A DNA stretch of 64,000 bases from an uncultured bacterium. Lineage in GTDB: Bacteria; Babelota; Babeliae; Babelales; Babelaceae. The notes under the pieces are model-generated. The model was not told where the DNA came from, did not search any database, and saw nothing but the letters and a program-made list of their open reading frames with translations. A program made the translations under genes and the position numbers. The stretch lies in assembly GCA_963722385.1 (NCBI GenBank), contig CAVRKK010000001.1:128001-192000 (forward strand), written 5' to 3'. Of this stretch, positions 413 through 64,000 are shown one piece after another (the stretch's first letter is position 1; each line of letters starts with the position of its first letter).

Positions 413-1627
413 CTATGCTTTACTACTTATTGGCTTAAACTCACCGCGTATTAGCTTTTTCTCGATCAGTAACATAAGGATACTCAATGCAAGAAAATAA
501 AGAGGCATTGGTAACAATGTGCCATTATGCAGAGATCCCATGCCAAGGGTAATAAAAGATATAAAGCAGTAATAGAAAAAGCCGAATAGACTTGACGCTG
601 TTCCTATGCACCACTTATATTCTACAAGAGCAAGAGCCAAGGCATTGCTTGTACACATACAAATACCAAACATAATTATCATTTGAGAAATAAGGGTTAT
701 GCCAATCAACCAATTGTTTGGCATATGAAGGTAAGTATTAAGTAATATAAGGCTGCTAAATAGGCACGTTGCTAGGAGTATAACCATGAGCCCATAACGC
801 ATAATTTCTTGTGAGGTATGAGTATCATGTAACTTCTTGGAGACCGTGCCGCCGAGCATGGTACTTGCAGCGATGGCTATAAAGCTTAATCCGAATTGAG
901 TTGAAGATAAGCCCAAAAGCTTTATCAGGAAAAATGATCCTTCAGCAAAATAACTGAAGCTAATACCATTACAAATAGCTACGATGAGCCCGAAACCAAG
1001 TACCTTTTTATTGCGCAATAAGCTCAAGGCCACTTCTATGCTGGAAATAGCTTTTCTAGCGGATGCTAAATGCGTTTCAGGCAAACGTATTAATACCAGG
1101 ATGGTAAGAACAATAGCAAAAGCAATGAGGAATAAAAAAATATTATACCAGCCAAAACTTTGTGCTATAAATCCCCCAATAACGGGACCAATAGCGGGAA
1201 AAACAGCCAAGCTGCTGCCAGTTGAGGAATAGACTTTGCCCAAAGCAGGACCGTGGAAAGCATCTCGACAGATTGCTTGCCCCAGAACACTGCCGACACT
1301 GCCACCAAAGGCTTGAATGAAGCGGCTTACCATTAAGAGGGTAATTGATGTAGATAGATAACACCCGAGACATCCCAACAAGAAAATGAGTAACCCTGCT
1401 AAAACGCATGGCTTGCGACCTGCCTTATCCGATATTTTTCCCCATATAAGAGTTCCAACAGCAAAGCCAAAAAGGTAAATCGTAAGGGTAAACTCTACGA
1501 GAGATTCAGATACCCTTAAGGTACGGGCAATATCTGGCAAAGAAGGCGTGTAAACGGTTTCTGAAAGTAATGGTAGTCCTACGATCAATACGATAAGCCA
1601 AATCGCAGGCAGTAAAACAGCGGTCAT
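413..1627 (-). CDS. Bcr/CflA-family MFS drug resistance transporter
   Basis: About 12 hydrophobic segments; YTPSLPDIA, motif A GKISDKAGRKP, RFIQAFG, PAIGPVIGG; GGAG RBS before ATG 1627. Confidence 0.92.
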   Translation of the reverse strand: MTAVLLPAIWLIVLIVGLPLLSETVYTPSLPDIARTLRVSESLVEFTLTIYLFGFAVGTLIWGKISDKAGRKPCVLAGLLIFLLGCLGCYLSTSITLLMVSRFIQAFGGSVGSVLGQAICRDAFHGPALGKVYSSTGSSLAVFPAIGPVIGGFIAQSFGWYNIFLFLIAFAIVLTILVLIRLPETHLASARKAISSIEVALSLLRNKKVLGFGLIVAICNGISFSYFAEGSFFLIKLLGLSSTQFGLSFIAIAASTMLGGTVSKKLHDTHTSQEIMRYGLMVILLATCLFSSLILLNTYLHMPNNWLIGITLISQMIIMFGICMCTSNALALALVEYKWCIGTASSLFGFFYYCFISFITLGMGSLHNGTLLPMPLYFLALSILMLLIEKKLIRGEFKPISSKA

Positions 1628-3784: not shown

Positions 3785-4148
3785 CGTTATGGCCTCATGG
3801 TTATACTAGGAGCAACGTGCTTATTTAGCGGTCTTATTATTACTTAATACTCACTGCCGAGTTATTGGCATAACTCTTATTGCTCAAATGATAATTATGT
3901 TTGGTATCTGTATGTGCACAAGTAATGCATTGGCTCTTGCTCTTGTAGAATATACATGGTGTCTAAGAATCGCATCAAGCCTATTTGGTTTTTTCTATTA
4001 CTGCTTTATATCTCTTATTATACTTGGCATGGGCTCCCTGCATAATGGAACATTATTACCAATGCCTCTTTGCTTTCTTGCATTGAGCATTGTTATGGTA
4101 TTTATCGAGAAAATGCTCATACAAGATGGGGTAAAGTACAGTAATTAG
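3785..4148 (+). pseudogene. inverted, diverged copy of the 3' part of the Bcr/CflA MFS gene
   Basis: MIIMFGICMCTSNALALALVEY...GMGSLHNGTLLPMPL is near-identical to the C-terminus of 413..1627; 5' part absent. Confidence 0.9.
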
Positions 4149-26041: not shown

Positions 26042-28197
26042 TGACGGTTCATATCTTGCTACTGCTAATTATTCAGGGTGATGTAGTGATTTTTTCAGTA
26101 GGGGCAGGAGGCACTTTAAGTCAAGGTACTTCTTATCCTTTGCCTAGTGGTTCTACCGCAAGCACAGTAGTGTTTTCTCCTTCGGGATCTTATCTTGCAA
26201 CCTGTAGTAATGGCGGTAGCAACGGAAATACTATAACTCTTTTTACGGTAGAAGCAGGAGGAATTTTGAGTAATGGGGGTTCATACGGCTTAGCCGGCTC
26301 TCTGTCTCCTGCTGGAATAGCCTTTTCTCCTAATAGTGCCTATTTAGCTACCGCCAATTCTTACACAAATGATGTTACCATCTTTAGCGTAAAGACTGGA
26401 GGAGTATTAAGTGGTGGTACCTCATATGCATTGCCTAGCAACTCAACTGGACCTCAGTTTGTAGCGTTTTCACCTGATGGTAACTACTTAGCTACCGCTA
26501 ATCAGGCATCAAATGATGTAACAATATTTCAAGTAGGACCTGAAGAAACTTTGAGTGGAGCACTATCATATGCATTGCCAAGCAACTCGAGCGCTCCTTT
26601 TTCAGTAGTATTTTCGCCAAATGGCTTATATCTTGCTACTGCTAATAAAACTTCAAATAACGTAACGATTTTTAACGTAGGAAGGGGAGGCATATTAAGC
26701 GGTGGCACATCTTATTCTCTACCTTCTGGTTCAACGGTACCATTTTCAGCAGTATTTTCACCAAATGGTTTGTACCTTGCAACGGTTAATGCTAGATCTC
26801 AAGATGTTACCTTATTTACCGTAGCAGAAGGAGGAGTACTCAGTAATGCCAATTCATACCCTTTACCTGCTGGATCCTTGGAACCTGAAATGGGAAAATT
26901 CTCATCATCTGGCCAGTATTTTGTGACCGCTAATTATGGCTCAAGCGATGTTACGGTCTTTACTGTTGTCTGCACCGATCAAGCTGAGAGTACAGGGATC
27001 TCATATCCTTTACCTCCTCATTCTATAAGACCTGAGGCGATAACTTTTTCACCCGACGGCCTTTTTCTTGCAACAGCTAACTATGACTCAAATGATGTAA
27101 CCATTTTTAGAACAAGTACGACAGGTTATTTTATCGACCTTGGATTGGCAACCTCATATAAACTACCTTTAAATTCAACCAATCCAGCTTCGATAGCATT
27201 TTCTTCTGATACCGCGTACGCGGCAACGGCCAATAGCGGTTCGAATGACGTAACTCTCTTTACTCTTTCAGAAGGACAGTTGCAAAATGCCCGATCCTAT
27301 ACATTACCTGCAGGATCAACTAACCCAACGTCAGTAGAGTTTTCGCCAAACACTAGGTATCTTGCTGTAGCTAGTGGAGTTTCAAGTGACGTGGTAATCT
27401 TTACTGTTAATGCAGGTTCTTTGGAAGAAGCTGCTTCATATGCATTACCCACTGGTTCCTTAAACCCTTTAAAAGTAGCGTTCACACCTAATGGTTCGTT
27501 CCTTGCTACCGCTAATGCAAATTCAAATGATATAACCCTCTTTGCGGTTTCTGGTAACGCATTAACGAGTGGCATATCTCAGCCCTTACCGGCTGGATCC
27601 CGAAGACCTCAATCACTTGTATTCTTGCTCAGCCCATCTGGCGAATTATTTTTAGCCACAAGTAATAGTGGCTCAAATGATGTAACTATTTTCGGCATCC
27701 AGTCTGGAGCTATAACAAGCTCACTCTCATATTCCTTGCCTGAAGGAACGAGTAATCCTCAGGGAATAACCGCATCACCAGATGGGACTTACCTCGTAAC
27801 TGCCAATAGCGGTTCCAATGGTATTACCGCCTTGACGCTTGTCGGAAGCGAAATCCAAAATGCTATTTCATATAGTCTGCCAAGCAACTCAAGCAATTGT
27901 GTTGCACTCTCCTTTTTCCCTATAAACCAACAACAAATGACAGTTGTTACAGCCAATAGCGCTTCAAACGATGTATCAGCCCTTCCCTTACTTGATGTCG
28001 CAGAAGGAGAAGGAGACGGAAGCAGTCTTCCTCTAGGAGTCATTATAGGAACAACTATAGGTATTCCGGCGGGCCTTGCTTTTTTAGCAGCTGGAATAAG
28101 CATGCTTAGTTGCTTAACCTATAAGTATATACAGCATAAGCGTCGGACAAACGCTAGAACTTGTGATGCAAAACAAGCCGTAGAAGAGTTTTTGTAA
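26042..28197 (+). CDS. beta-propeller repeat (lactonase-like) protein with C-terminal TM anchor, 5'-truncated
   Basis: About 13 repeats of SYxLPxxSxxPxxxxFSPxGxYLATANxxSNDVTIF; begins mid-repeat just after the resolvase fragment; C-terminal GVIIGTTIGIPAGLAFL..YKY. Confidence 0.85.
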
Positions 28198-36468: not shown

Positions 36469-37662
36469 ATGAACAATAAAATAGCAATTCTACTACTTAT
36501 GTGCTTCAGTCCAAAGATTTATGGTTCGTGTTCAGTCGTGTCTCAAGTATCCTACCCATTGCCTCCTAATTCTCTCTATACTCATTCCGTAGCCTTTTCA
36601 CCTGATGGGAATTATTTGGCTACGGTTAACCGTAGCTCAAATGACGTAACTATATTTAGCGTAACCGCTCAAGGAGCCTTAATTAATGGTACAACATATC
36701 CCCTTCCGGCTGGCTCAACAAGTCCTACTAGAGGGGCATTTTCAGCAAATGGCCTCTATCTTATTACTGCAAATACTGGCTCAAATGACGTAACCCTCTT
36801 TAAATTTGCTAAAGGCGTGCTAACTTCTGGTACCTCTTATAAATTGCCAGGAAGTTCTTCATTTCCCAGTGGTGCGGTATTCTCACCAGATGATTCATAT
36901 GTCGCTACTTCAAATCAAGGATCAGGAGATATAACAATATTTGCCGTAACAGCCGGCACGCTTAGCAATGGGATATCATACCCATCACCTGCTGGAGCTT
37001 CCGATCAGCAGCAGTTTATTAATTTTTCCCCAGATGGAGCATTTCTTGCTGTACCTAATAGAATTTCGAATAATATATCGGTCTTTAATTTTCACTCTAA
37101 TGGAACACTAAGCGCAGGAAAAGTATACCCCCTGCCTGCAGGAGCAACAACTACCTCTTCTTTGGCGTTTTCATCTGATGGTTCCCATTTGGCTGCTACC
37201 GCTTTCGGGTCAAATCAGGTTGTTCTATTTACCGTAACTAATGGTGTTCTTAGTGAAGGTATAGCATATTCCTTGCCTACTTCACCTTTTGCATCGCAGG
37301 GAACCCAAGATGTTGTTTTTTCTCCAAATGGTGCATGCCTTGCTACTAGTGATTTTCTAACAGATGACATAACATTATTTGATATGTCGAATGGCGCTCC
37401 GATAGATAATGGCACTTCCTATTTATTGCCAATTCAAGATACAGAACCCTACTGGATAACAATTTCGCCTAATGGGTTATATCTAGCCACTGCTAATGGA
37501 AACAACGGTGGTAATGGTACAGTGACTATTTTTACTTTGACGGGAAGCTCGGGATCAACTACATCCGCCTCAACAACAGCATCGACTTCATCCTCTACTA
37601 ATGACGTAGCAAAAGCAGAGTCGATTATGGGTTATTTATTTGCGCTGCTTAATATATTTTAA
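36469..37662 (+). CDS. secreted 7-bladed beta-propeller (lactonase-like) protein
   Basis: Signal peptide, 7 FSPDGxYLAT..NDVTIF repeats, Ser/Thr-rich stalk and short hydrophobic C-terminus. Confidence 0.9.
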   Translation: MNNKIAILLLMCFSPKIYGSCSVVSQVSYPLPPNSLYTHSVAFSPDGNYLATVNRSSNDVTIFSVTAQGALINGTTYPLPAGSTSPTRGAFSANGLYLITANTGSNDVTLFKFAKGVLTSGTSYKLPGSSSFPSGAVFSPDDSYVATSNQGSGDITIFAVTAGTLSNGISYPSPAGASDQQQFINFSPDGAFLAVPNRISNNISVFNFHSNGTLSAGKVYPLPAGATTTSSLAFSSDGSHLAATAFGSNQVVLFTVTNGVLSEGIAYSLPTSPFASQGTQDVVFSPNGACLATSDFLTDDITLFDMSNGAPIDNGTSYLLPIQDTEPYWITISPNGLYLATANGNNGGNGTVTIFTLTGSSGSTTSASTTASTSSSTNDVAKAESIMGYLFALLNIF

Positions 37663-52727: not shown

Positions 52728-53095
52728 TGAGTCAAATCGCCTGCGCGGCTGGCGGCTAAGGGACATCCCTTAGCAATCCCCAAAGCGTTATGCTTAATGC
52801 TTATAAGCTTGGTGTGTGTAGTTATCGTACGCCAAAGCGTACGATAACTTACGCCATTTATCATGTACGCTGCGCTCCATGATAAAAATTTAATATCGCT
52901 TTCTATTTTCTGTCAGGAAAATTGCGGTAGCTCTAAGCATACGCCACGCATGGTTAGAGCATTCACAGAAAAATAAAGACTAACATAGAGAGCAAGAAAT
53001 AAAATCAATGGGTGCAGGGCCGCCGCCCTGCTGCCCGCCGCATAGGCGCGCCCGCTGCGTAAGCGTTCCCGTCGTAGCCTTAGCAAAGTCAGCCG
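52728..53095 (+). repeat. structured non-coding multi-hairpin element, copy 1
   Basis: Aligns with the reverse complement of 55810..56209; at least 7 hairpins, e.g. agttatcgtacgc-caaa-gcgtacgataact (52820-52849). Confidence 0.88.
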
Positions 53096-53170
53096 CATAG
53101 GCGCACTTGGCTCACGCTTGCTTACTTCCTGCCTGCAATTCGCCCTGGAAAAAAGACGAAGCCTTTTTAA

Positions 53171-53590
53171 CTATCGCTTACGCACATGAAGCATATTCTT
53201 TAAGTATAAGATAGCACCGAGTAATATGCCGCTTACGACCACACCCGATGCGATAAGAGGCAAAGCGCTTCTTTTCTTTGGTTCTGTTTCTTGTGATAAA
53301 ACCTGTAAAGCTTCTTGAGACTCTTTATCGCCTTGTCGAGCAGCAAGCGCATAATAATGACGGGCATCCTCAAGCTTGCCGGCTCGTTCATGCGACGCAG
53401 CTAGTTTGCGTAAAGCTTCAACGTCTCCTGTCTGAGCTAAATTCGCTATGCGCTTTTGCTCGAACTCTTGAATTACCGCAGCGTAATTCTTATTTATTTG
53501 CCTATCTATCTGGCAGAAACCCCACGCACAACAAAAAATAATAGCTATAAAGCCACCTTGGAAAAATTTATATAAAGCTTTGTTATGCAT
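53171..53590 (-). CDS. Sel1-like repeat protein with N- and C-terminal hydrophobic segments
   Basis: AQTGDVEALRKLA...ARHYYALAARQGDKESQEAL. Confidence 0.78.
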   Translation of the reverse strand: MHNKALYKFFQGGFIAIIFCCAWGFCQIDRQINKNYAAVIQEFEQKRIANLAQTGDVEALRKLAASHERAGKLEDARHYYALAARQGDKESQEALQVLSQETEPKKRSALPLIASGVVVSGILLGAILYLKNMLHVRKR

Positions 53591-53712
53591 TTCAGCCCCT
53601 GTAGCTTTCAGATATAAAATAAAATCTTTGCCAATATAGCAAATTTTTTGAAAGAATAAAATCGTGCTTAAGCAGTACCGCTGAAGCTATAAGAGTTTTT
53701 TTGTCGTAATCT

Positions 53713-53919
53713 CTACTTCTTTTTTCTTAACAATGGTAAACCTGTTAAAGAGCTTTCCATGACCTCATAACCAGCGGGTAGCTGATCAATAACCGTAGGT
53801 CCGGTGGCTTTGCCTGAAAAGTAAAAAATGCGCTGGCGGCGGCCATTTCTAAGAACGACATCTTTGGTATGCAAATAATACGTTTTGCCGCTTTTTTTAG
53901 ACTTCACGCTATATGCCAT
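53713..53919 (-). CDS. small basic conserved hypothetical protein
   Basis: GKTYYLH..V.LRNGR.Q.IFYF..LPAGYEV.E..TGLPLLRKK, a recognisable small uncharacterised family; GAGGG RBS. Confidence 0.8.
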   Translation of the reverse strand: MAYSVKSKKSGKTYYLHTKDVVLRNGRRQRIFYFSGKATGPTVIDQLPAGYEVMESSLTGLPLLRKKK

Positions 53920-54094
53920 GCTTTCCCCTCTTGTGCATATGATTTCTAAACCAAGCCTACTATGTTTCGAGGCGATATGGCAAGATATGGCTTCTCGCTT
54001 GATAAAAACCGCGATTTATTATTGCTTTCTCGCTGCATGGTGACTATATATTAAGAAAAGTATTTAAACAATGGCTGTGAGGAAAGGGCCCATT

Positions 54095-54625
54095 ATGCAA
54101 GAAACGCCATCGGTAAAGTCGCGAGCACCCAAAGAACTGTTTCCACTCTTAGGTGCTATTGCGGCGTGCTTTATCTTTACCTTGTTATTACAGTGGTGGC
54201 ACGGCAGCATAGACCTCATGAAGGGCATGAGAGACTTTATGGGAAGTCTGCTTGTCCTTTTTGGCGTCATTAAGCTCCTGAATCTGCAAGGTTTTGTAGC
54301 GATATATAGGTCATATGATATTATAGCCAAGAAGAGCGCACTGTATGCCTACGCATATCCCTTTATTGAGATAGCGCTTGGTGTACTGTATCTTATTAAT
54401 CTTTTTCCTGTACCTGTCAACATACTTACCGCTTTGTTGGCCCTCATCAATAGCGCAAGTGTTTTTCGTGCGCTGGGTGAAAAAAGAGATATCTCGTGTG
54501 CCTGCATGGGAACTACCTTTAGGACACCGCTCACTAAATTGACCCTTTTTGAAAATATATTTACCTGCCTCATGGCGCTTTCTATGCTGATTATGCACTT
54601 GCTTGCCATAAAGAGCCTGCCTTGA
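54095..54625 (+). CDS. MauE/DoxX-like membrane protein
   Basis: GF...Y.SYDIIAK..YAYAYPFIEIALG, CACMG, TLFEN. Confidence 0.82.
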   Translation: MQETPSVKSRAPKELFPLLGAIAACFIFTLLLQWWHGSIDLMKGMRDFMGSLLVLFGVIKLLNLQGFVAIYRSYDIIAKKSALYAYAYPFIEIALGVLYLINLFPVPVNILTALLALINSASVFRALGEKRDISCACMGTTFRTPLTKLTLFENIFTCLMALSMLIMHLLAIKSLP

Positions 54626-54745
54626 GCAATAAAACGCTCGCTTGCTTCAAGCGTAATCTGGTGAGAAAACTTTCCAATCCTAGATTTATTAAAATAGCAT
54701 GTGATAACTTGGCATTAAGTAGCTTCAGCCAAGGACACCCAGCTT

Positions 54746-55774
54746 ATGCAGAGCAGTCGCCATCTCTTTAAAAAGCCTTTGCTGCTTAATGCTTTGCTTT
54801 TATTTTTCCTGCCTTATGCTCCCTCACTAAAAGCACGAACTATTTTAGGCGAGTTAGAAATTTTGCGCGCTTTACATTTAGCGCAACCACATACTGATCA
54901 TCCGCATCGCTTTGCTATAGCCCCTGTCGCGCGTCATACACTTTTACACATAAATAAAAGTTCTTACGATGGCTTTTACCGGGGATCGCTGATTGATTAT
55001 AAGTATGTATTTCCTTATGGTCATATTGAGGTTGTGTCGGCGATAGCGGCCGATCGGGTAAAATACCACAACGCAGGAAAGCAGTTTCAAAGATCAGCTG
55101 TTGGCTTAGACGATATAGGTATTACGGTTAGTTACGATATAGGCCAAGAGAGAAATTACCTTCATGTCGGTGCGCTTGCCGTTATTCCAACCGCCAGCCC
55201 TAACCCGCTTGGTACCCTCATAGGGGGCGGGCTTTGGTTTGCAGGAGCAGATTTGACAACTGCTTTTGAGCTACCCGGAATATTTAAACGATGGGATCTT
55301 AGCTTTTTTGGACAAGGTGCACTTCTACAAAGTTTTCCAGCAACCGTTTTGCTTAATAAGCACATGCAACTAATATCTTCTAAAAGCCACCAAAAGCCAG
55401 CTTTTAAGGAAACTTTTGATGATGGGACGGGGTTTTTTAATCTTGTCGTTCTTCGCTCAGGCCCCGAGGAGAGAGGTTTTGAAATAGGCTATCACGGCAC
55501 TATTATTTTTAATGTCCATAGAAAGATTACCCGCCTTTCTAAGCATAACCACACCAAGAAAAGCAGCTTCGATAACCACACCGATATGGAGAAACTTACC
55601 ATAAACAAAAATGGGACTAAAGCTACTTATGTACATCACATCATTGCCCAATGTAATACAGTGTGCTTAACAGACTGGTACCCAATAGGAATAGTTTTTG
55701 GCGGCGCTTACGCGTTTGGCACCAACTCTCGGTCTGAATTTGAACTTTGGTCAGCGCTTTCCTTACATTTTTAA
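54746..55774 (+). CDS. His-rich exported protein, possible outer-membrane beta-barrel
   Basis: Signal peptide, amphipathic strands, GLDDI motif, C-terminal LSLHF. Confidence 0.6.
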   Translation: MQSSRHLFKKPLLLNALLLFFLPYAPSLKARTILGELEILRALHLAQPHTDHPHRFAIAPVARHTLLHINKSSYDGFYRGSLIDYKYVFPYGHIEVVSAIAADRVKYHNAGKQFQRSAVGLDDIGITVSYDIGQERNYLHVGALAVIPTASPNPLGTLIGGGLWFAGADLTTAFELPGIFKRWDLSFFGQGALLQSFPATVLLNKHMQLISSKSHQKPAFKETFDDGTGFFNLVVLRSGPEERGFEIGYHGTIIFNVHRKITRLSKHNHTKKSSFDNHTDMEKLTINKNGTKATYVHHIIAQCNTVCLTDWYPIGIVFGGAYAFGTNSRSEFELWSALSLHF

Positions 55775-55809
55775 TAAAGATTAAGCGACCTCTCTGGGGT
55801 TTAAGCCAT

Positions 55810-56209
55810 GGCCGATTTTCGCCAAGGCTGTGGCGGGAAACGCTTACGCAGCGGGCGCGACTACGCGTCGAGCGGCAGGGCGGCGGCCCTGCACCCACAC
55901 CAGAGGGATTTTTTGCTTTACAGCTTGCACCTTGCTTGCCTAATGCCATAACCATGCGGGGCGCATGATTACGGCAAACGCAATTTTCCTGACGGAAAAT
56001 AGAAAGCGATATTGGGTTTTATCATGGAGCATCGCGACATGATAATGGCGTAAGTTATCGTACGCTTTGGCGTACGATAACTACTCACCAAGCTTATAAG
56101 CATTAAGCATAACGCTTTAGGGATTGCTAAGGGACGATGTCCCTTAGCCGCCAGCCGCCACCAGCCCTGCGAAGCGTTTGCGCGAAGAAGGGGCAGGCGA
56201 TTTGATTCA
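55810..56209 (-). repeat. structured non-coding multi-hairpin element, copy 2 (inverted)
   Basis: Same hairpin order as copy 1, plus an inserted hairpin gccctgcgaagcgtttgcgcgaagaaggggc (~56164-56194). Confidence 0.88.
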
Positions 56210-56236
56210 ATTCGCTTTAGTACCCATACCAAATAA

Positions 56237-57914: not shown

Positions 57915-58277
57915 ATGAAAACTTTTTTTAAGCTCATCTTATTGTGCTTTATGTTCCAGGGAGCACTGAGAGCGGAAGATCAAAAGTGCCCTAGCGGTTA
58001 CCATCGCGTACTTGCCTTTGATAATCTGAATGATTACTTTTTTGACGAGCTTGCCAAGTATGTGCCTGCAGCAAAACGGCAATATTCTTCGGTATGCTTA
58101 AATCCCGCAAGCAATGTTGGCTATGTCGTGTTATGTGACCATAAGATGCCTGCGAAAGTGGTCCCTTATGCAATTAAAGCACTTGGCATTAGTTGGCTCG
58201 GAACCGCCAATGGCCTCAACGTATATGTAAAAAATGCTGATATACATGATGCATGTGGCTGGTCGCCGCCGGAATAA
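57915..58277 (+). CDS. small secreted Cys-containing hypothetical protein
   Basis: AAGGAG RBS, signal peptide, CPSGY, ends DACGWSPPE. Confidence 0.78.
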   Translation: MKTFFKLILLCFMFQGALRAEDQKCPSGYHRVLAFDNLNDYFFDELAKYVPAAKRQYSSVCLNPASNVGYVVLCDHKMPAKVVPYAIKALGISWLGTANGLNVYVKNADIHDACGWSPPE

Positions 58278-58294
58278 AATGGATAGTTGAAACT

Positions 58295-60163
58295 ATGATC
58301 ATATTAAAATTTAAATTACAGATAATACTGTGCGCGCTTCTTTTAATGCTTCCAGTAGCAATTTGCCAACAGGAACAACCACAAAGCGCTCCAAAAGGGG
58401 TCCATGAAGCCTTGCGGGAGATATTACAGCTGGAGCCTGCTATTTCTTCGTGGCAGCCGTATGCAGCGTGGAAGAAACAGATGAGCGAATTTTTCAAAAC
58501 GAAACCATCGCTTGTTTCTCAATGGGCAGACCTGTTCAATTTGGCGGCTGCGGCGCTCAATGAGGCAAATATTGCGTCGCATCCCCATGATGCCCTCTAT
58601 CCTTATAATTTTTTGCGCGAGCTTTTGGGGCTACCAACCGTTTCATCACTGGAGCACGTAGACAAATTATGGTTTAAACAAGTTGGTCGCGAAATTCAAA
58701 TTTTTACACTTATAGAATTCTACCCCGGATGGGAGCTGCCAACCGAGGCTCAAAAAGAACTTATTCTCGAGGGAGCGCGGCTTCTTAAGCTTAGACAAGA
58801 GATAGTGGCTCTTTCTCATCCTACTGGTGCTAGTACAACGAATCTAGAGCAAGCTATTGTGGGCATTTGCAAAACACCCGACCTTGGCGTTCGCTTAGTC
58901 ACCCTTTATCATGAATTAGGACATGTTCTTCATAATGATTCTCAGACGCTGGGCAACATATTGGCGCATAAGCAAGACCCCGTCACCGTTGTTAACGATA
59001 CAGATTTCAAAGCAGATCTCGAGGACCTCAAAAAGTATTCTATGCTTGCCTTAGAGGCTCTCCCCTCATTCAAGAATACCGCCGCTGGTAGTTTAATAAC
59101 AGAAGCCATGTCTCTACCGAGAGTTCAACAAATTATTAAGGAATATGGGATGCTTTGGATCCCTCCTGAAAATCAACAAAAAAAAGATATGATGATCCTC
59201 AGGCGCGGGCAAGAGCAACGAGCTGACCTTTTTGCACTGAGACAACTACTAAAATTGCAGAATATAAGCGCAATTTTAAGCAACCTCTATGTAGTTCAGA
59301 TGAATAGCTATATCAAGGGCAGCACCCCATGGGCCTATAAAAAAGAAACCGCGGAAGGTCAATATTGGTTTTTTACGGAAGGCACGGCCGATAAACATGG
59401 TTCTAATGTTGAAGTAACACTCTATACGATAGGTTTTTTGATACATCATGGGTTTAATGTACCGCAGCTTTTGGATGAATGGGAAAAGCAAGGCGTCTGC
59501 TTGTCCGGCGAGCAAGCCACCAGCTATGCCAAGCTCTTTACTCCTGCCTGGGGTTCTCAAACAGAGTCCGCAGTAAAAAAGGCATACCATAAATGGCAAG
59601 AAGTAAAAATAAGTAAAGAATATAGCGAATGGAAAAATAAAAATAGCTGGCTTCTTAAGGTACCATCGAGTGTGGCATATGCTTCTCTTAAAAGTGACAT
59701 CGATGAGCACTTACAGAAGCTCGAAGAAAATCCAAGCAGCCTCGTGGAGCTAAAAGAGGCCCTCTTTAGCTACAATTATTTACGCGAAATAATGCAGCTC
59801 CCAATAGTCGTTTCATGGCGTGATATTGATCAAAATTGGGTAAAAGGATTAGCATATCCCATCTGGAAAAAGGACGAGCAAGAATCATGGCAACAAAGGG
59901 CCCTTTCAAAAGACGCTCAAAAAACTGAGCTTATAAAAAATACTCTTCACGAACTAGCTTACCTCAAGAAACACCCAAATGAGGACCAAAAGCTTGCTCT
60001 TTTTAGCTATAACCTATTACGCGAAATGCTGGGTTTACCACGTGCCTCCTCGTGGCTTACCATTGACCAACCTTGGTTAGAAGACCAAGCAAGCAAAATT
60101 AAGGAAGAACCTGCAAGTTACAACTTGCCTCACCGTGAGGATAGTAATGATAAAGAAGCTTAA
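58295..60163 (+). CDS. secreted HExxH (M48-like) protein, tandem copy A
   Basis: LYHELGH, QEQRADLF, KHGSNVE; three YN(F/Y/L)LRE..LP repeats. Confidence 0.85.
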   Translation: MIILKFKLQIILCALLLMLPVAICQQEQPQSAPKGVHEALREILQLEPAISSWQPYAAWKKQMSEFFKTKPSLVSQWADLFNLAAAALNEANIASHPHDALYPYNFLRELLGLPTVSSLEHVDKLWFKQVGREIQIFTLIEFYPGWELPTEAQKELILEGARLLKLRQEIVALSHPTGASTTNLEQAIVGICKTPDLGVRLVTLYHELGHVLHNDSQTLGNILAHKQDPVTVVNDTDFKADLEDLKKYSMLALEALPSFKNTAAGSLITEAMSLPRVQQIIKEYGMLWIPPENQQKKDMMILRRGQEQRADLFALRQLLKLQNISAILSNLYVVQMNSYIKGSTPWAYKKETAEGQYWFFTEGTADKHGSNVEVTLYTIGFLIHHGFNVPQLLDEWEKQGVCLSGEQATSYAKLFTPAWGSQTESAVKKAYHKWQEVKISKEYSEWKNKNSWLLKVPSSVAYASLKSDIDEHLQKLEENPSSLVELKEALFSYNYLREIMQLPIVVSWRDIDQNWVKGLAYPIWKKDEQESWQQRALSKDAQKTELIKNTLHELAYLKKHPNEDQKLALFSYNLLREMLGLPRASSWLTIDQPWLEDQASKIKEEPASYNLPHREDSNDKEA

Positions 60164-60341
60164 ATTAACAATTTTGCTATTTATTATACTATCTTCCTCC
60201 CAAGAAACCTGTGCATTCAATGTTAACTTGAGAGCACCCGATAGCAGTTGGCTCGGAACCACCAATGGCTTCAATGTATACGTAAAAAATGCTGATATAC
60301 ATGATGCATGTGGTTGGTCGCCTCAACAAGAGGATAACTGA
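60147..60341 (+). CDS. chimeric small ORF at the duplication junction
   Basis: N-terminus matches the 62141 signal peptide (KLTILLFIIL..QETCAFNV); C-terminus matches 57915 (SWLGT.NG.NVYVKNADIHDACGWSP). Confidence 0.6.
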   Translation: MIKKLKLTILLFIILSSSQETCAFNVNLRAPDSSWLGTTNGFNVYVKNADIHDACGWSPQQEDN

Positions 60342-60345
60342 AACT

Positions 60346-62049
60346 ATGATCATATTAAAATTTAAATTACAGATAATACTGTGCGCGCTTCTTTTAGTGC
60401 TTCCAGTAGCAATTTGCCAACAGGAACAAGCGCAAAGCGTTCCAAAAGGGAGCCATGAAGCCTTGCGAGAAATATTACAGCTCGAGCCTCCTATTTCTTC
60501 GTGGCAGCCATATGCAGCATGGAAAAAGCAGATGCGCGAATCTTTCAAAACGAGACCTTCTCTTGTTTCTCAATGGGCAGATCTGTACAACTTGGCACAT
60601 GCTGCGCTCAATCAGGCAGATATCGCTTCCCATCCCAATGATGCCCTCTATCCCTATAATTTCTTGCGGGAACTTCTGGGGCTACCGCTTGTTCCATCAT
60701 TGGAGCACGTAGACAAATTATGGTTTGAACAACTTGGTCGCGAAATTGAAATTTTCTGGCTTATAGAATTCTACCCCGCATTGGAGCTGCCAACCGAGGC
60801 TCAAAAAGAACTTATTCTTGAGGGAGCGCGGCTTCTTAAGCTTAGACAAAAGGTAGTAGCCTTCTCGCATCCATATGGCGGTTCTTCTCATGTAAGCCCC
60901 AATCAAGCATATATCGCAATTTGCCATACACCTGATATAGATATGCGGTTACATTATTTATATCACGAGTTAGGCCATATAAAGCATAATGATGCCACCA
61001 TTAGATCTGATGTAGCATTAAATAAGCAAGATCCGATTGCTATTGTTAATGAACCAGATTTTAAATCTGACCTTACGGATATCAAAAATTACTTTGAGCT
61101 CGGCTTAGCATTGATACCCTCGCTAAAAACTACAAAAGTCGGCAATAAGCTTGCTCAAGCATTGGCTACGCCACAAGCCCAAGAAGTACTTAAGGCGTAT
61201 GGGGAGCTTTGGATTCCTCCTAAAGATGCGCATGAGAAAGCGAGAATGATTTATTTACGAGGTACCGAGCAAAGAGCTGACCTTTTTATGCTTAATCAAC
61301 TGCTAAAACTAAAAAATGCAAGCTCAATTTTAAGCGCAATAAGTAGCTATACTTCGCTCTACATCATTGTTAAAGGAGCCGATGATGTGCATCCTTCTGA
61401 TGTTGAACGAGCGCTCTACATGATAGGCTTTTTAACACATCATGGGTTTAATGTACCAAAACTTTTGGATGAATGGGAAAAGCAAGGCGTCTGCTTGTCC
61501 GGGGAGCAAGCCACCAGCTACGCCAAGCTCTTTACTCCTGCCTGGGATTCTGCAACAGAATCAGCCGTAAAAAAGGCTTACCATAAATGGCAAGAAGTAA
61601 AAATAAGCAAAGAATATCGCGAATGGAAAAGCAAGAATGAGTGGCTTCAGACGGTACCAGCGAGTGTGGCATATTCTTCTCTTAAAAGTGACATCGATGA
61701 GCACCTACAGAAGCTCGAGGAAAACCCAGGCAGCCTCGTGGACCAAAAAGAGGCTCTCTTTAGCTACAATTATTTACGGGAAATAATGCAACTTCCAATA
61801 GTTGTTTCATGGCGTGATATTGATCAAAGCTGGGTAAAAGGGTTAGCATATCAAATCTGGAAAAAGGCCGAGCAAGAATCATGGCAACAAAGGGCCCTTT
61901 CAAAAGAGGCTCAAAAAACTGAGCTTATAAAAAATACTATTCACGAACTAGCTTACCTCAAAAAACACCCAAATGAGGACCAAAAGCTTGCTCTTTTTAG
62001 CTATAACCTATTACGAGAAATGATGGGCTTATCACGTGTTTCCTCGTAG
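60346..62049 (+). CDS. secreted HExxH (M48-like) protein, tandem copy B, with premature stop
   Basis: LYHELGH, TEQRADLF, HPSDVER; TGG of copy A is TAG at 62047 and homology continues to ~62151. Confidence 0.85.
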   Translation: MIILKFKLQIILCALLLVLPVAICQQEQAQSVPKGSHEALREILQLEPPISSWQPYAAWKKQMRESFKTRPSLVSQWADLYNLAHAALNQADIASHPNDALYPYNFLRELLGLPLVPSLEHVDKLWFEQLGREIEIFWLIEFYPALELPTEAQKELILEGARLLKLRQKVVAFSHPYGGSSHVSPNQAYIAICHTPDIDMRLHYLYHELGHIKHNDATIRSDVALNKQDPIAIVNEPDFKSDLTDIKNYFELGLALIPSLKTTKVGNKLAQALATPQAQEVLKAYGELWIPPKDAHEKARMIYLRGTEQRADLFMLNQLLKLKNASSILSAISSYTSLYIIVKGADDVHPSDVERALYMIGFLTHHGFNVPKLLDEWEKQGVCLSGEQATSYAKLFTPAWDSATESAVKKAYHKWQEVKISKEYREWKSKNEWLQTVPASVAYSSLKSDIDEHLQKLEENPGSLVDQKEALFSYNYLREIMQLPIVVSWRDIDQSWVKGLAYQIWKKAEQESWQQRALSKEAQKTELIKNTIHELAYLKKHPNEDQKLALFSYNLLREMMGLSRVSS

Positions 62050-62140
62050 CTTAGCATTGACCAACCTTGGCTAGAGGAACAAGCACGTAAAATTAAGGAA
62101 GCATCTGCAAGTTACAGCTTGCCTCCACTTGAGGATAGCA

Positions 62141-64000
62141 ATGATAAATAAGATTAAATTAACAATTTTGTTATTTATTATATTATTTTCCCTCCAAGAA
62201 ACCTGTGCATTCAATGTAACGCAGCATAAAGAGTATGAGGTATGGAAAGAGCAACAGCGTAAATCTTGGGGGGCAAAATCAACGCTTCCTGAGCAATTAG
62301 CAGCGCTTGCCAATTCGGCGAATAATGCACTTGGTCAGGCAAGGATTGAGCTCGAACCCCAAAATGCCATTTACCCCTATAATTTCTTACGGGAGCTTTT
62401 AGGGCTGCCTTTGGTTTCATCGTTAGCAGACATAGATAAGCTGTGGCTCGAGCAGATCCTGCCAGAGGTTGAACTTTTTACCGTTATTGAAGAACGGGAG
62501 TGGTTGCTACCTACTGAAGCTCAAAAAGAACTAGTATTTGAGGCTTCCCGCCTTCTTAATCTGCAGCAAGAGATTGTGGCTCTCAATTTCGGGGCTCTTG
62601 GCGGAGAAGCTATAACGAAAGGCGAAAGACGATACTTGGCGCTTTGTCAAACGCCCGACCTGGATATTCGATTAGCAATTTTATATCATGAATTAGGACA
62701 TATCGTTCATCACGATATAGAAACTGCGCGTGACGTCATGTCTCACAAGCAAGATCCAATAGCGGTTGTTAATGCCCCAGATTTTAAATCAGATCTTGAA
62801 GAAATTAAAAGCTGTTTTGAGCTTGGCTTGACCACCCTCACTTTGTTAAAAAATACTAAAATTGGCAACAGCCTAACCCAAGCTCTGACTACCCCAAAGG
62901 CTCAAGAAGTTCTTAAAGAATATGGCGTGCTTTGGATTCCCCCTGAAAATCAACAAGAGAAAGACGAACTGATATATTTAAGGGGTATTGAGCAAAGAGC
63001 TGACCTTTTCTCACTCAAGCAACTTCTAAAATTGAAGAATACGAGCTCAATTTTAGCTGGCATATATACCATGGGTCTTCGCGAAAAAATAATTTTGAAC
63101 GAAATTGTTACTGAAGGTACCAAGGAAAAGCATCCCTCTTTGGTTGAACGGTCAATTTATATGATAGGCTTCTTGGCAAAGCAAGGCTTTAACGTGGTAC
63201 ACCTCTTTGAAGCATGGGAAAAGGAGGGGATTTGTCTCGTGGAAAACCAAGCAACCGGCTATGCGAAACTTTTTTCTCCAGCTTGGGACTCTACAACAAA
63301 CTCAGTAATAAAAAAGGCTTATGAGGCCTGGAAAGAAAAAAAATTCCAAGAAGACTATAGTTTATGGAAGCAAAAAAAACAAGAATATTGGCAAAAAATG
63401 GCCCTAACTCCTCTAGCGCGGCAAATAGAGCTGCTCAGAGACTGGAACAAGCATTTGACCAATCTTGAAGAAAATCCGAGTAGCAAGAGTGAACAAAGCA
63501 AGCTGCTTTTTACTTACAATTACTTAAGAGAGATGACACATCTCCCTCTTGTTTCGTTTTGGAAAAACATGAACCTATCTTGGATTCAAGAAAAAAAATA
63601 TCAGATCTCGAAAGATAAATTGCAAGCAAATTGGGAAGGTCAAAAATTAACGCCTTTAGGTCAAAAAGCTGATCTTATATTTCTCCTTACGTATCGCCTC
63701 GACACTCTCAAAGAACATCCTGATAACGAGCAGCTTCAAAAGGAAGCGCTTTTTAATTACAATTTCTTGAGAGAAATGACGCGGCAGCCACGCGTTTCTG
63801 ATTGGAAAAGCATCAATTCCTCGTGGGTTGAACAAGAAGATTATAAGGTTTGGAAAGAGCAAAAACAAGAAATACTGAAGGAGCAGAATCTGACATTGAA
63901 AGAACAAAAAGTTGATATTGTGCGTAATATCAATCGTTTAGTGGAGCAAGAGGTGACGGATCCCTATAACCGAAGAGAACTTATTTTTAGTTATAATTAT
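62141..64000 (+). CDS. secreted HExxH (M48-like) protein, copy C, partial at the window end
   Basis: Open from ATG 62141 (MINKIKLTILLF..) to the edge; YHELGH, IEQRADLF, KHPSLVER; at least 4 YN(F/Y)LRE-type repeats, the last cut by the edge; absent from the ORF track because it has no stop. Confidence 0.85.
   Translation, partial: MINKIKLTILLFIILFSLQETCAFNVTQHKEYEVWKEQQRKSWGAKSTLPEQLAALANSANNALGQARIELEPQNAIYPYNFLRELLGLPLVSSLADIDKLWLEQILPEVELFTVIEEREWLLPTEAQKELVFEASRLLNLQQEIVALNFGALGGEAITKGERRYLALCQTPDLDIRLAILYHELGHIVHHDIETARDVMSHKQDPIAVVNAPDFKSDLEEIKSCFELGLTTLTLLKNTKIGNSLTQALTTPKAQEVLKEYGVLWIPPENQQEKDELIYLRGIEQRADLFSLKQLLKLKNTSSILAGIYTMGLREKIILNEIVTEGTKEKHPSLVERSIYMIGFLAKQGFNVVHLFEAWEKEGICLVENQATGYAKLFSPAWDSTTNSVIKKAYEAWKEKKFQEDYSLWKQKKQEYWQKMALTPLARQIELLRDWNKHLTNLEENPSSKSEQSKLLFTYNYLREMTHLPLVSFWKNMNLSWIQEKKYQISKDKLQANWEGQKLTPLGQKADLIFLLTYRLDTLKEHPDNEQLQKEALFNYNFLREMTRQPRVSDWKSINSSWVEQEDYKVWKEQKQEILKEQNLTLKEQKVDIVRNINRLVEQEVTDPYNRRELIFSYNY

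Follow-up and report, generated by a model that had tools for sequence, protein, structure and literature searches.

Introduction

BOX elements follow the build boxA-boxB-boxC, and the MITEs of DDE transposases include Correia and RUP. REPIN and REP/BIME sequences are extragenic and multicopy, consist of two palindromic ends set in inverse orientation about a spacer, form tandem arrays in some genomes, and probably fold as single strands (PMC3116915, PMC3733652, PMC6006769); CGTC repeats are described there as being without a dedicated transposase (PMC3733652). The BOX elements of Streptococcus pneumoniae are portrayed as modular, hairpin-rich and intergenic sequences with lineage-restricted bursts that are regarded as parasitic and whose mobiliser is unproven (PMC3049150). 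From replicons, single-strand initiation (ssi) signals have been reported, among them ssiA/pas of ColE1, ssiA and ssiB of RSF1010, and the G4 origin, as hairpins of about 40 nt that lie on one strand near the origin (PMC3167613, PMC4434180). Stem-loops (SaL 4, SaL 5) are reported to lie 3' of repJ in Pseudomonas replicons, and SaL 5-like sequences also 3' of unrelated rep genes (PMC5304414).

The element analyzed here resides in two copies in a window of 64,000 nucleotides from the genome of an uncultured member of the Babelaceae (G000). It shares the traits listed above with REPIN and REP/BIME sequences but it differs from REPINs in having neither a GTAG tag nor a repeat-flanked RAYT gene, in its much longer, structured and swappable cores, and in ends that are common to replicon regions. 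The likeness to BOX elements is one of build, and here the ends cross phyla whereas the cores are lineage-specific. DDE-type MITEs have inverted ends, lack of genes and empty orthologous sites in common with our element, which, unlike them, is without fixed terminal bases or target duplication and keeps its ends as folds. Like the ssi signals cited, the end unit is a hairpin structure of about 40 nt on one strand, near the origin in its prophage and plasmid relatives. In the record of phage G4, CTG stands immediately 3' of the origin hairpin. Among 36 units of G000 and 21 units of the sister-genus genome G001, 26 and 12, respectively, have their first end hairpin closed by CTG, which is not invariant. 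ColE1 has a hairpin at 1497-1521 that is loosely related to the end hairpin. The resemblance to the repJ stem-loop region (PMC5304414) consists in the position of the end hairpin behind rep genes of plasmids and prophages, but the unit is single-copy there and a dispersed repeat here, and it is absent from pPsv48C, the experimentally tested RepJ replicon. A search of the literature outside subscription journals returned no relevant description of the motif or the family.

Results

Two copies of the element in the window

An earlier note on this DNA had listed a chain of hairpins in two blocks, and both a sequence check and an alignment located the chain where it had been claimed. Copy 1 and the reverse complement of copy 2 are identical at 204 of 222 positions in the left part and core, at 57 of 62 for the right end, and at 22 of 44 in the linker; the latter, said to have diverged completely, is A-rich and poorly conserved, and at 50% identity not wholly unrelated. 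Folding z-scores of the two blocks are -6.6 and -7.0 relative to dinucleotide shuffles. The extent given for copy 1 needs correction, as this copy starts with an additional pentaloop hairpin on the minus strand (52739-52749) and reaches 53103, where a third pentaloop hairpin is found. Its first stem had been thought to be extended in copy 2; instead, 3 nt have been lost from copy 1 relative to most copies. The extra hairpin module of copy 2 is real, and among 17 aligned copies one more contains it. The parts of the two copies are as follows.

52735..53103, plus strand: copy 1, whole type-A element; the exact terminal base could not be fixed
52735..52781, minus strand: left end unit of copy 1, read outward, with a leader rich in G, a hairpin at 52755-52774, a GCRNA-pentaloop hairpin at 52739-52749, and ATT
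52820..52849, plus strand: core hairpin P3, 13 bp, mismatches tolerated at one position
52858..52885, plus strand: core hairpin P4, eight invariant pairs, loop variable
52905..52922, plus strand: core hairpin P5 with c-GNNA-g tetraloop; the right module common to types A, B and C starts here
52930..52960, plus strand: core hairpin P6, 14 bp, double-sided changes in five pairs
52962..53008, plus strand: variable A-rich linker, the site of optional hairpin modules in other copies
53010..53065, plus strand: right end unit of copy 1, with GGGTGC leader, P7 (53014-53031) and GCRNA-pentaloop hairpins 53036-53048 and 53053-53065
53066..53103, plus strand: optional outer module with the third pentaloop hairpin
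55810..56215, minus strand: copy 2, whole type-A element, inverted relative to copy 1 and 2.7 kb away
55841..55896, minus strand: right end unit of copy 2
56120..56202, plus strand: left end unit of copy 2, read outward
56159..56192, minus strand: 34-nt hairpin module in the left terminal hairpin loop of copy 2
56200..56215, minus strand: small array of 5-letter words, of GAATT/GAATC type, beyond the left end of copy 2

The leaders of the end units read GGGTGC/GGGATTGC, and the RNA model R1 matches the left end unit of copy 1 at G000:C1:180735-180779. A single unit, common to several phyla and to replicon regions, forms both ends in inverted copies, a feature missed in the earlier reading; the cross-phylum part corresponds to the right end unit (53010..53065 in copy 1). 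The array of GAATT/GAATC-type words comprises one to about five words in other copies. A module similar to 53066..53103 is also present in other Dependentiae without the element.

A mosaic repeat family and its sites

Rather than being present twice, the element occupies 52 loci in the genome, in both orientations, all of them intergenic and gene-less, with a median pairwise identity of 0.78 among the 17 aligned copies. Type A is spanned by 25 of these loci, while 22 share the right module alone, 12 of them in combination with a different left module. The build is that of a mosaic, in which exchangeable cores and optional hairpin modules lie between two inverted end units of about 40 nt; its subunits are interchangeable and variably repeated as in BOX and BIME sequences, and it forms an extragenic, multicopy inverted palindrome doublet as do REP and REPIN sequences, so that the modular, REPIN-like layout proposed previously is upheld. 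Some copies are truncated and one is interrupted by IS3-like DNA. Neither fixed terminal bases nor a target duplication were found in the flanks of 31 copies. With respect to the neighboring genes, 16 of the 52 loci have the same orientation, 11 the opposite one, nine lie in divergent and 16 in convergent gaps; based on crude ORF calls, convergent gaps are enriched (16/52 elements versus 102/594 gaps; p 0.011). A lagging-strand bias, judged against GC skew, was not significant (33/52; p 0.07).

Empty sites in relatives, the search for which had been proposed, do exist: seven of ten testable orthologous junctions are short and empty in G001, in sequence too diverged for the exact junction to be placed. 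This genome possesses the identical end type around a different core, at other sites, and is devoid of the type-A core. No enrichment of the element at breaks of synteny was seen, since 19 of 35 element junctions are still syntenic versus 77 of 216 other long gaps. Low-depth contigs from four runs of the same strain revealed no excision, empty allele or joint across the element.

Covariation and fold

The pairing-preserving changes that had been noticed are borne out: 21 of 70 pairs are altered on both sides, compared with 9.4 in shuffles and one to three in slid controls. These double changes are mostly Watson-Crick, with few wobble intermediates, and P4 and the loops are invariant whereas the linkers drift. 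Only local hairpins are supported, and no long-range helix. The end hairpins fold on opposite strands at the two ends of the element, and both strands of the element fold almost equally well. A G-U strand polarity had been read from the two copies; what stands of it is an excess in the long stem (18 G.T versus 3 A.C), but 12 of these 18 stem from one column, and the remaining four stems tallied contain no G.T pair, making the signal a weak one.

The pentaloops of the ends are of the GNRNA type, with a purine at the third place in 73 of 85 plus-strand G..A pentaloops. The GNRNA pentaloop is a loop known from RNA. In the core tetraloop c-GNNA-g, the third place is taken by a pyrimidine in 35 of 39 cases, and this motif is named among stable DNA tetraloops in the title of a reference listed in PMC3201870. 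The plasmid relatives of the end hairpin terminate in c-GNA-g triloops.

Search for a mobilising enzyme

GTAG had been noted at the foot of two stems in copy 1; both sites are internal, the first of them pairing within P3 as a stem component and the second differing among copies. Genes for RAYT/IS200 TnpA, TnpB and IscB are present in G000, but with other ends, and were ruled out as a match; the Y1 genes of this genome are IS200-type, and the end unit is absent from their loci. Six of ten carriers searched (G001, G261, G263, G312, G399, G412) gave no Y1 match, G264 was also negative, and the carrier genomes examined contain no repeat-flanked RAYT gene. As GTAG is no tag and the carriers G001 and G261 are without Y1 genes, the HUH/RAYT mobilisation previously envisaged is not supported.

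A search for the IS91 Y2 transposase (0/5 genomes) is uninformative because the control gave no signal either. A reverse transcriptase occurs in two of five carriers, G001, G052 and G388 having none, and genome-wide end-unit scans produced no match at the multicopy IS-like genes of G000. No outward-facing pair of ends enclosing a mobility gene was found in G000, G001 and the fetched loci with a pattern that caught only 28 end units in G000. Only one GIY-YIG locus adjoins an end array; it holds a GIY-YIG/Nudix-like fusion that is flanked on a single side and belongs to a genome with 92 units.

The end unit in other phyla, prophages and plasmids

A genome scan found the end unit complete at 73 of 124 loci; the other 51, which have no leader, were excluded as chance matches, for the most part, in GC-rich genes. 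The Clostridia genome G261 contains 92 exact copies. In its family, 3 of 121 genomes carry the end unit, and in the Binatus-group family 10 of 151, with a reversed-pattern control yielding zero in both. Tandem or one-ended arrangements account for many of the copies in Clostridia and Binatia, and bursts with the same ends and different cores were observed in four lineages.

An initial viral scan with a 4-nt-loop pattern gave no loci. Of the 33 viral loci eventually analyzed, 32 possess a single-copy end unit about 340 nt behind a RepJ-like gene, on the strand opposite to the gene, and 31 have a second hairpin with a GCGYA loop; the 32 prophage loci represent one family and are hence kin, not independent cases. 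Behind the rep genes of pA506, pAU10, pLM8P2 and Drgb7, as in the 32 prophage loci, the end hairpin lies at a distance of 315-340 nt. The Pseudomonas plasmids carry a looser form of the unit behind their rep genes, which matches the first hairpin only and is below significance (pA506: 8.6 bits, E 0.88 with our model). Prophage and plasmid relatives are the only ones to show the ssi trait of a single copy near the origin on a fixed strand. When the end from the window and a Clostridial array were compared with plasmids by BLASTN, the matches were at chance level, and likeness to the R100 origin region and G-site yielded no significant sequence match.

Discussion

The repeat probably spread as a mobile but non-autonomous element, with ends recognised as folded single strands of DNA by a replication or nicking protein that acts in trans and is encoded elsewhere. 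A mobile element read in this form is likely because about 50 gene-less copies exist and because their ends recur around unrelated middles and behind replication genes. The analysis shows how many copies exist, that their build is a mosaic, that the stems covary, that orthologous sites may be filled or empty, that different cores have ends in common, and which position the single-copy relatives take in replicons. The modular, gene-less repeat is bounded by two inverted two-hairpin end units of about 40 nt, which are also met around unrelated cores in other phyla and behind the rep genes of prophages and plasmids; these ends would provide the cis signal for spread, their fold would act as DNA, and they may derive from a plasmid or prophage origin region. 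As likely side effects, the hairpins at gene ends could shape transcripts, and the copies could serve as substrates for recombination between one another. What weighs against this explanation is that no gene-bearing parent was found in G000, G001 and the fetched loci and no empty allele in the low-depth contigs, that the end pentaloops are of a type known from RNA, that the plasmid forms stay below significance and pPsv48C has no such unit, and that double changes in palindromes can arise by template switching. We classify the element as a REPIN/BOX-like mobile repeat undescribed in the literature searched, and what it adds to knowledge is an end unit that crosses phyla and is linked to replicons.

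MITE families show inverted ends, cores that are unrelated and bursts specific to a lineage. An orphaned MITE or REPIN, a conventional non-autonomous element whose transposase might be a DDE or HUH enzyme or a small cassette-borne nuclease, now lost from the genomes examined or outside the families searched, would have a precedent in the CGTC repeats as PMC3733652 presents them; the genomes examined are, moreover, 74-93% complete. We nevertheless hold this to be unlikely in view of the terminal bases that are not fixed, the target duplication that was not found, the frequent one-ended or tandem copies in Clostridia and Binatia, the lack of Y1 genes in most carriers searched, and the compensatory variation of the terminal hairpins, which would be needless for an enzyme reading double-stranded DNA. 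There is also little to commend the idea that the hairpins act in transcripts, as two-way terminators, stabilisers or protein-binding GNRNA loops, and were spread by recombination or gene conversion. It would account for the enrichment between convergent genes, the pentaloop type, the excess of G.T over A.C in one stem, and a weak likeness of the end hairpin to the Rfam family Clostridiales-2 (15-17 bits versus a cut-off of 58.6), but no orientation rule and no U-tract after the hairpins were found, the tetraloop is not GNRA, element sites differ between congeners, and the rep gene and the prophage copy are on opposite strands. The earlier suggestion of a large structured ncRNA, taken as a single gene that was amplified in the lineage, has z-scores of about -7 and covariation along the entire length in its favor. 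It is highly improbable, given that the Rfam search proposed at the time returned nothing significant at gathering score or by E-value, that orientation to the neighboring genes is not fixed, that the ends point in opposite directions, and that the tetraloop is of a DNA type; besides, only local hairpins are supported, left halves are interchangeable, and the core is missing from G001.

Template switching can yield double Watson-Crick changes in near-perfect palindromes without selection. The double changes, Watson-Crick for the most part and seldom with a wobble intermediate, the truncated copies and the one split by IS3-like DNA would suit a neutral decay of plasmid or prophage origin debris, spread by illegitimate recombination and perfected as palindromes in this way; yet independent bursts in four lineages with the same ends and different cores, and the invariance of P4 and the loops while linkers drift, make such an origin very hard to believe. 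Bolder, and in our judgment doubtful, is the proposal that plasmid and prophage origins supplied the end unit as a priming (single-strand initiation) signal, that a back-to-back pair of such units over-replicates the core via the host primase, the product being re-inserted without a transposase, and that this arose repeatedly in several phyla. End units on opposite strands would direct primers inward, as does a PCR primer pair, but a primer begun in the first hairpin would leave the outer hairpins uncopied. If true, this would establish a class of self-priming selfish DNA that needs no transposase.

Many bacterial mosaic repeats are not known to have a mobiliser. What is conserved here is a short piece of about 40 nt that occurs across phyla and whose single-copy relatives take a fixed place in replicons of culturable Pseudomonas (pA506, pAU10, RepJ prophages); its function is therefore testable in a laboratory strain despite the uncultured host. 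Should this piece signal priming or nicking, a repeat superfamily would trace its origin to plasmid replication and not to a transposase. Otherwise, the element would be another uncatalogued REPIN/BOX-like family that shapes the intergenic DNA of Dependentiae-type genomes.

Distribution and Mosaic Build of the Repeat

The gene-less hairpin element is a mosaic, covarying and dispersed repeat that has been gained or lost between congeners. Two copies lie in the window, flanked by genes for ankyrin-rich, signal-peptide proteins:

52735-53103, + strand: copy 1, inverted relative to copy 2
55810-56215, - strand: copy 2, inverted relative to copy 1

Every hairpin listed in the earlier note is present in both copies, which are identical at 204/222 positions across left end and core and at 57/62 in the right end. 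Divergence of the linker, described before as complete, is real but partial (22/44 identical). The folding z-scores are -6.6 and -7.0, and the Rfam check yielded no known RNA family at the gathering score and, by E-value, only 15-20-bit matches. A further inverted pair in the window (434-706 and 3864-4136; 273 nt, 85%, plus a 62-nt arm) falls outside the mosaic-repeat family in profile searches. The window also contains tandem 144-nt beta-propeller-like coding repeats (26300-27750 and 36580-37500) and a tandem family of secreted-looking proteins of 586-636 aa (58253-63400).

The element is far from being present only twice, as had been thought: BLASTN and profile searches across the 1.6-Mb host genome (G000), probably that of a Dependentiae (Babeliae) bacterium, returned 46 and then 52 loci, all of them intergenic by crude ORF calling. 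The flanking genes are convergent at 16 loci, co-oriented on the same strand at 16, on the opposite strand at 11 and divergent at 9; by the same crude call, convergent gaps are enriched (16/52 versus 102/594 background gaps, p 0.011). The type-A profile gave 50 matches, with 25 spanning its full length, 22 restricted to the right module (hairpins P5 and P6, linker and right end) and three to a left piece. In twelve of the 22, the right module is joined to a left module of type B or C, and others are truncated on the left at varying points; a single type-A copy is interrupted by a 3.7-kb stretch containing IS3-like fragments. Pairwise identity among 17 aligned copies has a median of 0.78 (0.67-0.90). 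As a side observation, positions 332016-332837 of contig C1 overlap C2:1-819 over ~820 nt at 98%, so that these two contigs of G000 probably join there.

Structure and Covariation

When 17 of 25 type-A copies are aligned, 96.2% of the cells form pairs. The earlier note's view that two-sided changes preserve the stems was borne out at 21/70 pairs, as compared with 9.4 in shuffles (0/500 as high) and 1-3 in slid controls; relatedness inflates the shuffle comparison, and the structure tested comes from the same 17 sequences. RNAalifold recovered the local hairpins from the type-A alignment and no well-supported long-range helix. Most pair changes lead from one Watson-Crick pair to another, and both strands fold alike; the G-U-type strand polarity proposed before is weak and seen in P6 only (G.T 18 versus A.C 3, 12 from one column).

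The P5 loop reads c-GNNA-g with a pyrimidine in third place in 35/39 cases and differs from GNRA, an RNA tetraloop type. The end hairpins carry GCRNA pentaloops, an RNA loop type, with a purine in third place in 73/85 (plus strand), and this counts against a DNA-type reading. The right end has these hairpins on the plus strand and the left end on the minus strand, so that no single transcript can show both. A c-GNNA-g-type loop is counted among stable DNA tetraloops by the title of a reference in PMC3201870, and PMC5737381 states that such motifs are not assignable to RNA or DNA from sequence alone.

Gain and Loss Among Relatives

The whole congener genome G001 (1.52 Mb) holds 17 profile matches and 25 end motifs, which enclose a wholly different core at sites other than those in G000. 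Both flanking proteins lie ≤3 kb apart in G001 for 10 of the 52 G000 junctions, and the empty sites that the earlier note had suggested seeking were found at seven of these ten (filled versus empty lengths of 541/35, 479/8, 488/44 and 419/55 nt, among others), the two genomes being too diverged for placement of the junctions; the other three hold different DNA. No empty allele was seen in four low-depth contig sets of the same strain. Within the phylum, occurrence is patchy: BLAST found the element in 6/261 genomes (G000 included, at least one match being at chance level) and a covariance-model scan in 3/150 (G000 included).

A Conserved End Unit in Distant Phyla

Read outward, both ends open with a G-rich leader and a hairpin of 5-10 bp; a short linker then leads to between one and three pentaloop hairpins. 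Among 31 flanks inspected, neither a constant terminal base nor a target duplication was found, arrays of 5-letter words were frequent in the left flank, and GTAG, previously remarked upon at the feet of stems, is not a tag. A hairpin module resembling window 53066-53095 occurs in other repeats (L033 in genome G169; L035 and L038 in G038), at L033 directly behind an apparent small GIY-YIG nuclease gene, as read by eye.

The end is conserved across phyla and has single-copy relatives in replicon regions; only the core is restricted to a single lineage. A 24-nt end pattern occurs at at least 124 loci, with the complete unit in 73 among the matches listed; carriers among these matches include Clostridiaceae bacterium strain 9, other Clostridia, Candidatus Binatus, delta-proteobacterial MAGs and another member of the family of G000. 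Exact 37-38-nt patterns were detected in 10/151 genomes of the Binatus family and in 3/121 of the Clostridial family, whose member G261 has 92 copies; reversed-pattern controls gave 0 matches in both families. Here too the cores are different, measuring 60-130 nt, and many of the copies have a single end or stand in tandem. One Binatus-family copy (L319, genome G391) is centred in a longer outer palindrome with ~40-nt arms, and at L210 a lone end unit lies 90 nt behind a 292-aa ORF resembling a tyrosine recombinase. On two Mu-like prophage contigs (L185 and L300), Binatus-type elements stand in tandem, with lysis-region genes on one side and a terminase-like gene on the other; such prophages are a possible vehicle between hosts.

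Relatives of the End Unit Near Replication Genes

The first end hairpin was found at 33 loci in viral contigs, which are not independent since the prophages form one family. At 31/33 it is accompanied by another hairpin, whose loop is GCGTA or GCGCA, and at 32/33 a 308-aa ORF lies ~340 nt away on the opposite strand. Neither Pfam nor PHROG gives a match for this ORF; it shares 52% identity with the gene that pPsv48C carries in its minimal replicon, and an atlas cluster resembling it carries IncFII RepA on 10% of its members. The pPsv48C gene encodes the initiator RepJ according to PMC5304414, which also reports stem-loops 3' of repJ, with SaL 5-like sequences likewise on the 3' side of unrelated rep genes. 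L165:2735-3661 and 31 other viral loci place a RepJ-like plasmid initiator in P2-like prophages of 29-35 kb, behind a CII-like gene and at the expected place of the replication gene.

In pA506, pAU10, pLM8P2 and Drgb7, a looser first hairpin is placed 315-340 nt behind the rep gene or its rep-like counterpart and is followed by hairpins with c-GNA-g loops; pKF707 has a variant form, and in a Paracoccus plasmid the looser hairpin immediately precedes mobC. Against a link to replicons, pPsv48C itself is without the end unit, three other fetched RepJ-like loci gave no end-unit match, the covariance model scores the plasmid forms below significance, and nothing in R100 resembles the unit. A loosely related hairpin in ColE1 (1497-1521) and the CTG directly 3' of the primer hairpin of phage G4, which in G000 closes the first end hairpin in 26/36 units, are leads only.

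Nature and Mode of Spread

The mosaic repeat works like REPIN and BOX elements, and no description of this family was found in the literature searched. The features checked speak against membership among REP, IS200 or DDE-type MITE elements: GTAG is no tag, resident TnpA, TnpB and IscB elements have other ends, and neither constant terminal bases nor a target duplication was seen. With regard to the HUH enzyme suggested in the earlier note, G000 encodes IS200 TnpA, TnpB, IscB, a reverse-transcriptase fragment and several multicopy IS-like genes. An intact 427-aa IscB (RRXRR + HNH) was seen at L023/L030:7727-9010 (G000:C2:1160227), and a second copy, 94% identical, at C1:291694-292792. Y1 genes are present in carriers G000, G052, G262 and G388 and were not found in G001, G261, G263, G264, G312, G399 and G412, several of these genomes being incomplete. 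Of 28 mobility-gene loci from carriers, only a GIY-YIG fusion has the end unit, and on a single side. No outward-facing end pair surrounding a mobility gene was found in G000, G001 or the fetched loci, with a pattern that captured 28 end units in G000.

That the end units are inward-facing priming signals, amplifying their own core without any transposase, seems to us unlikely. We rather favor, with some reserve, the reading that the end is a single-stranded DNA signal of plasmid or prophage origin, which would be the cis-acting sequence that a trans-supplied protein uses to spread the element.
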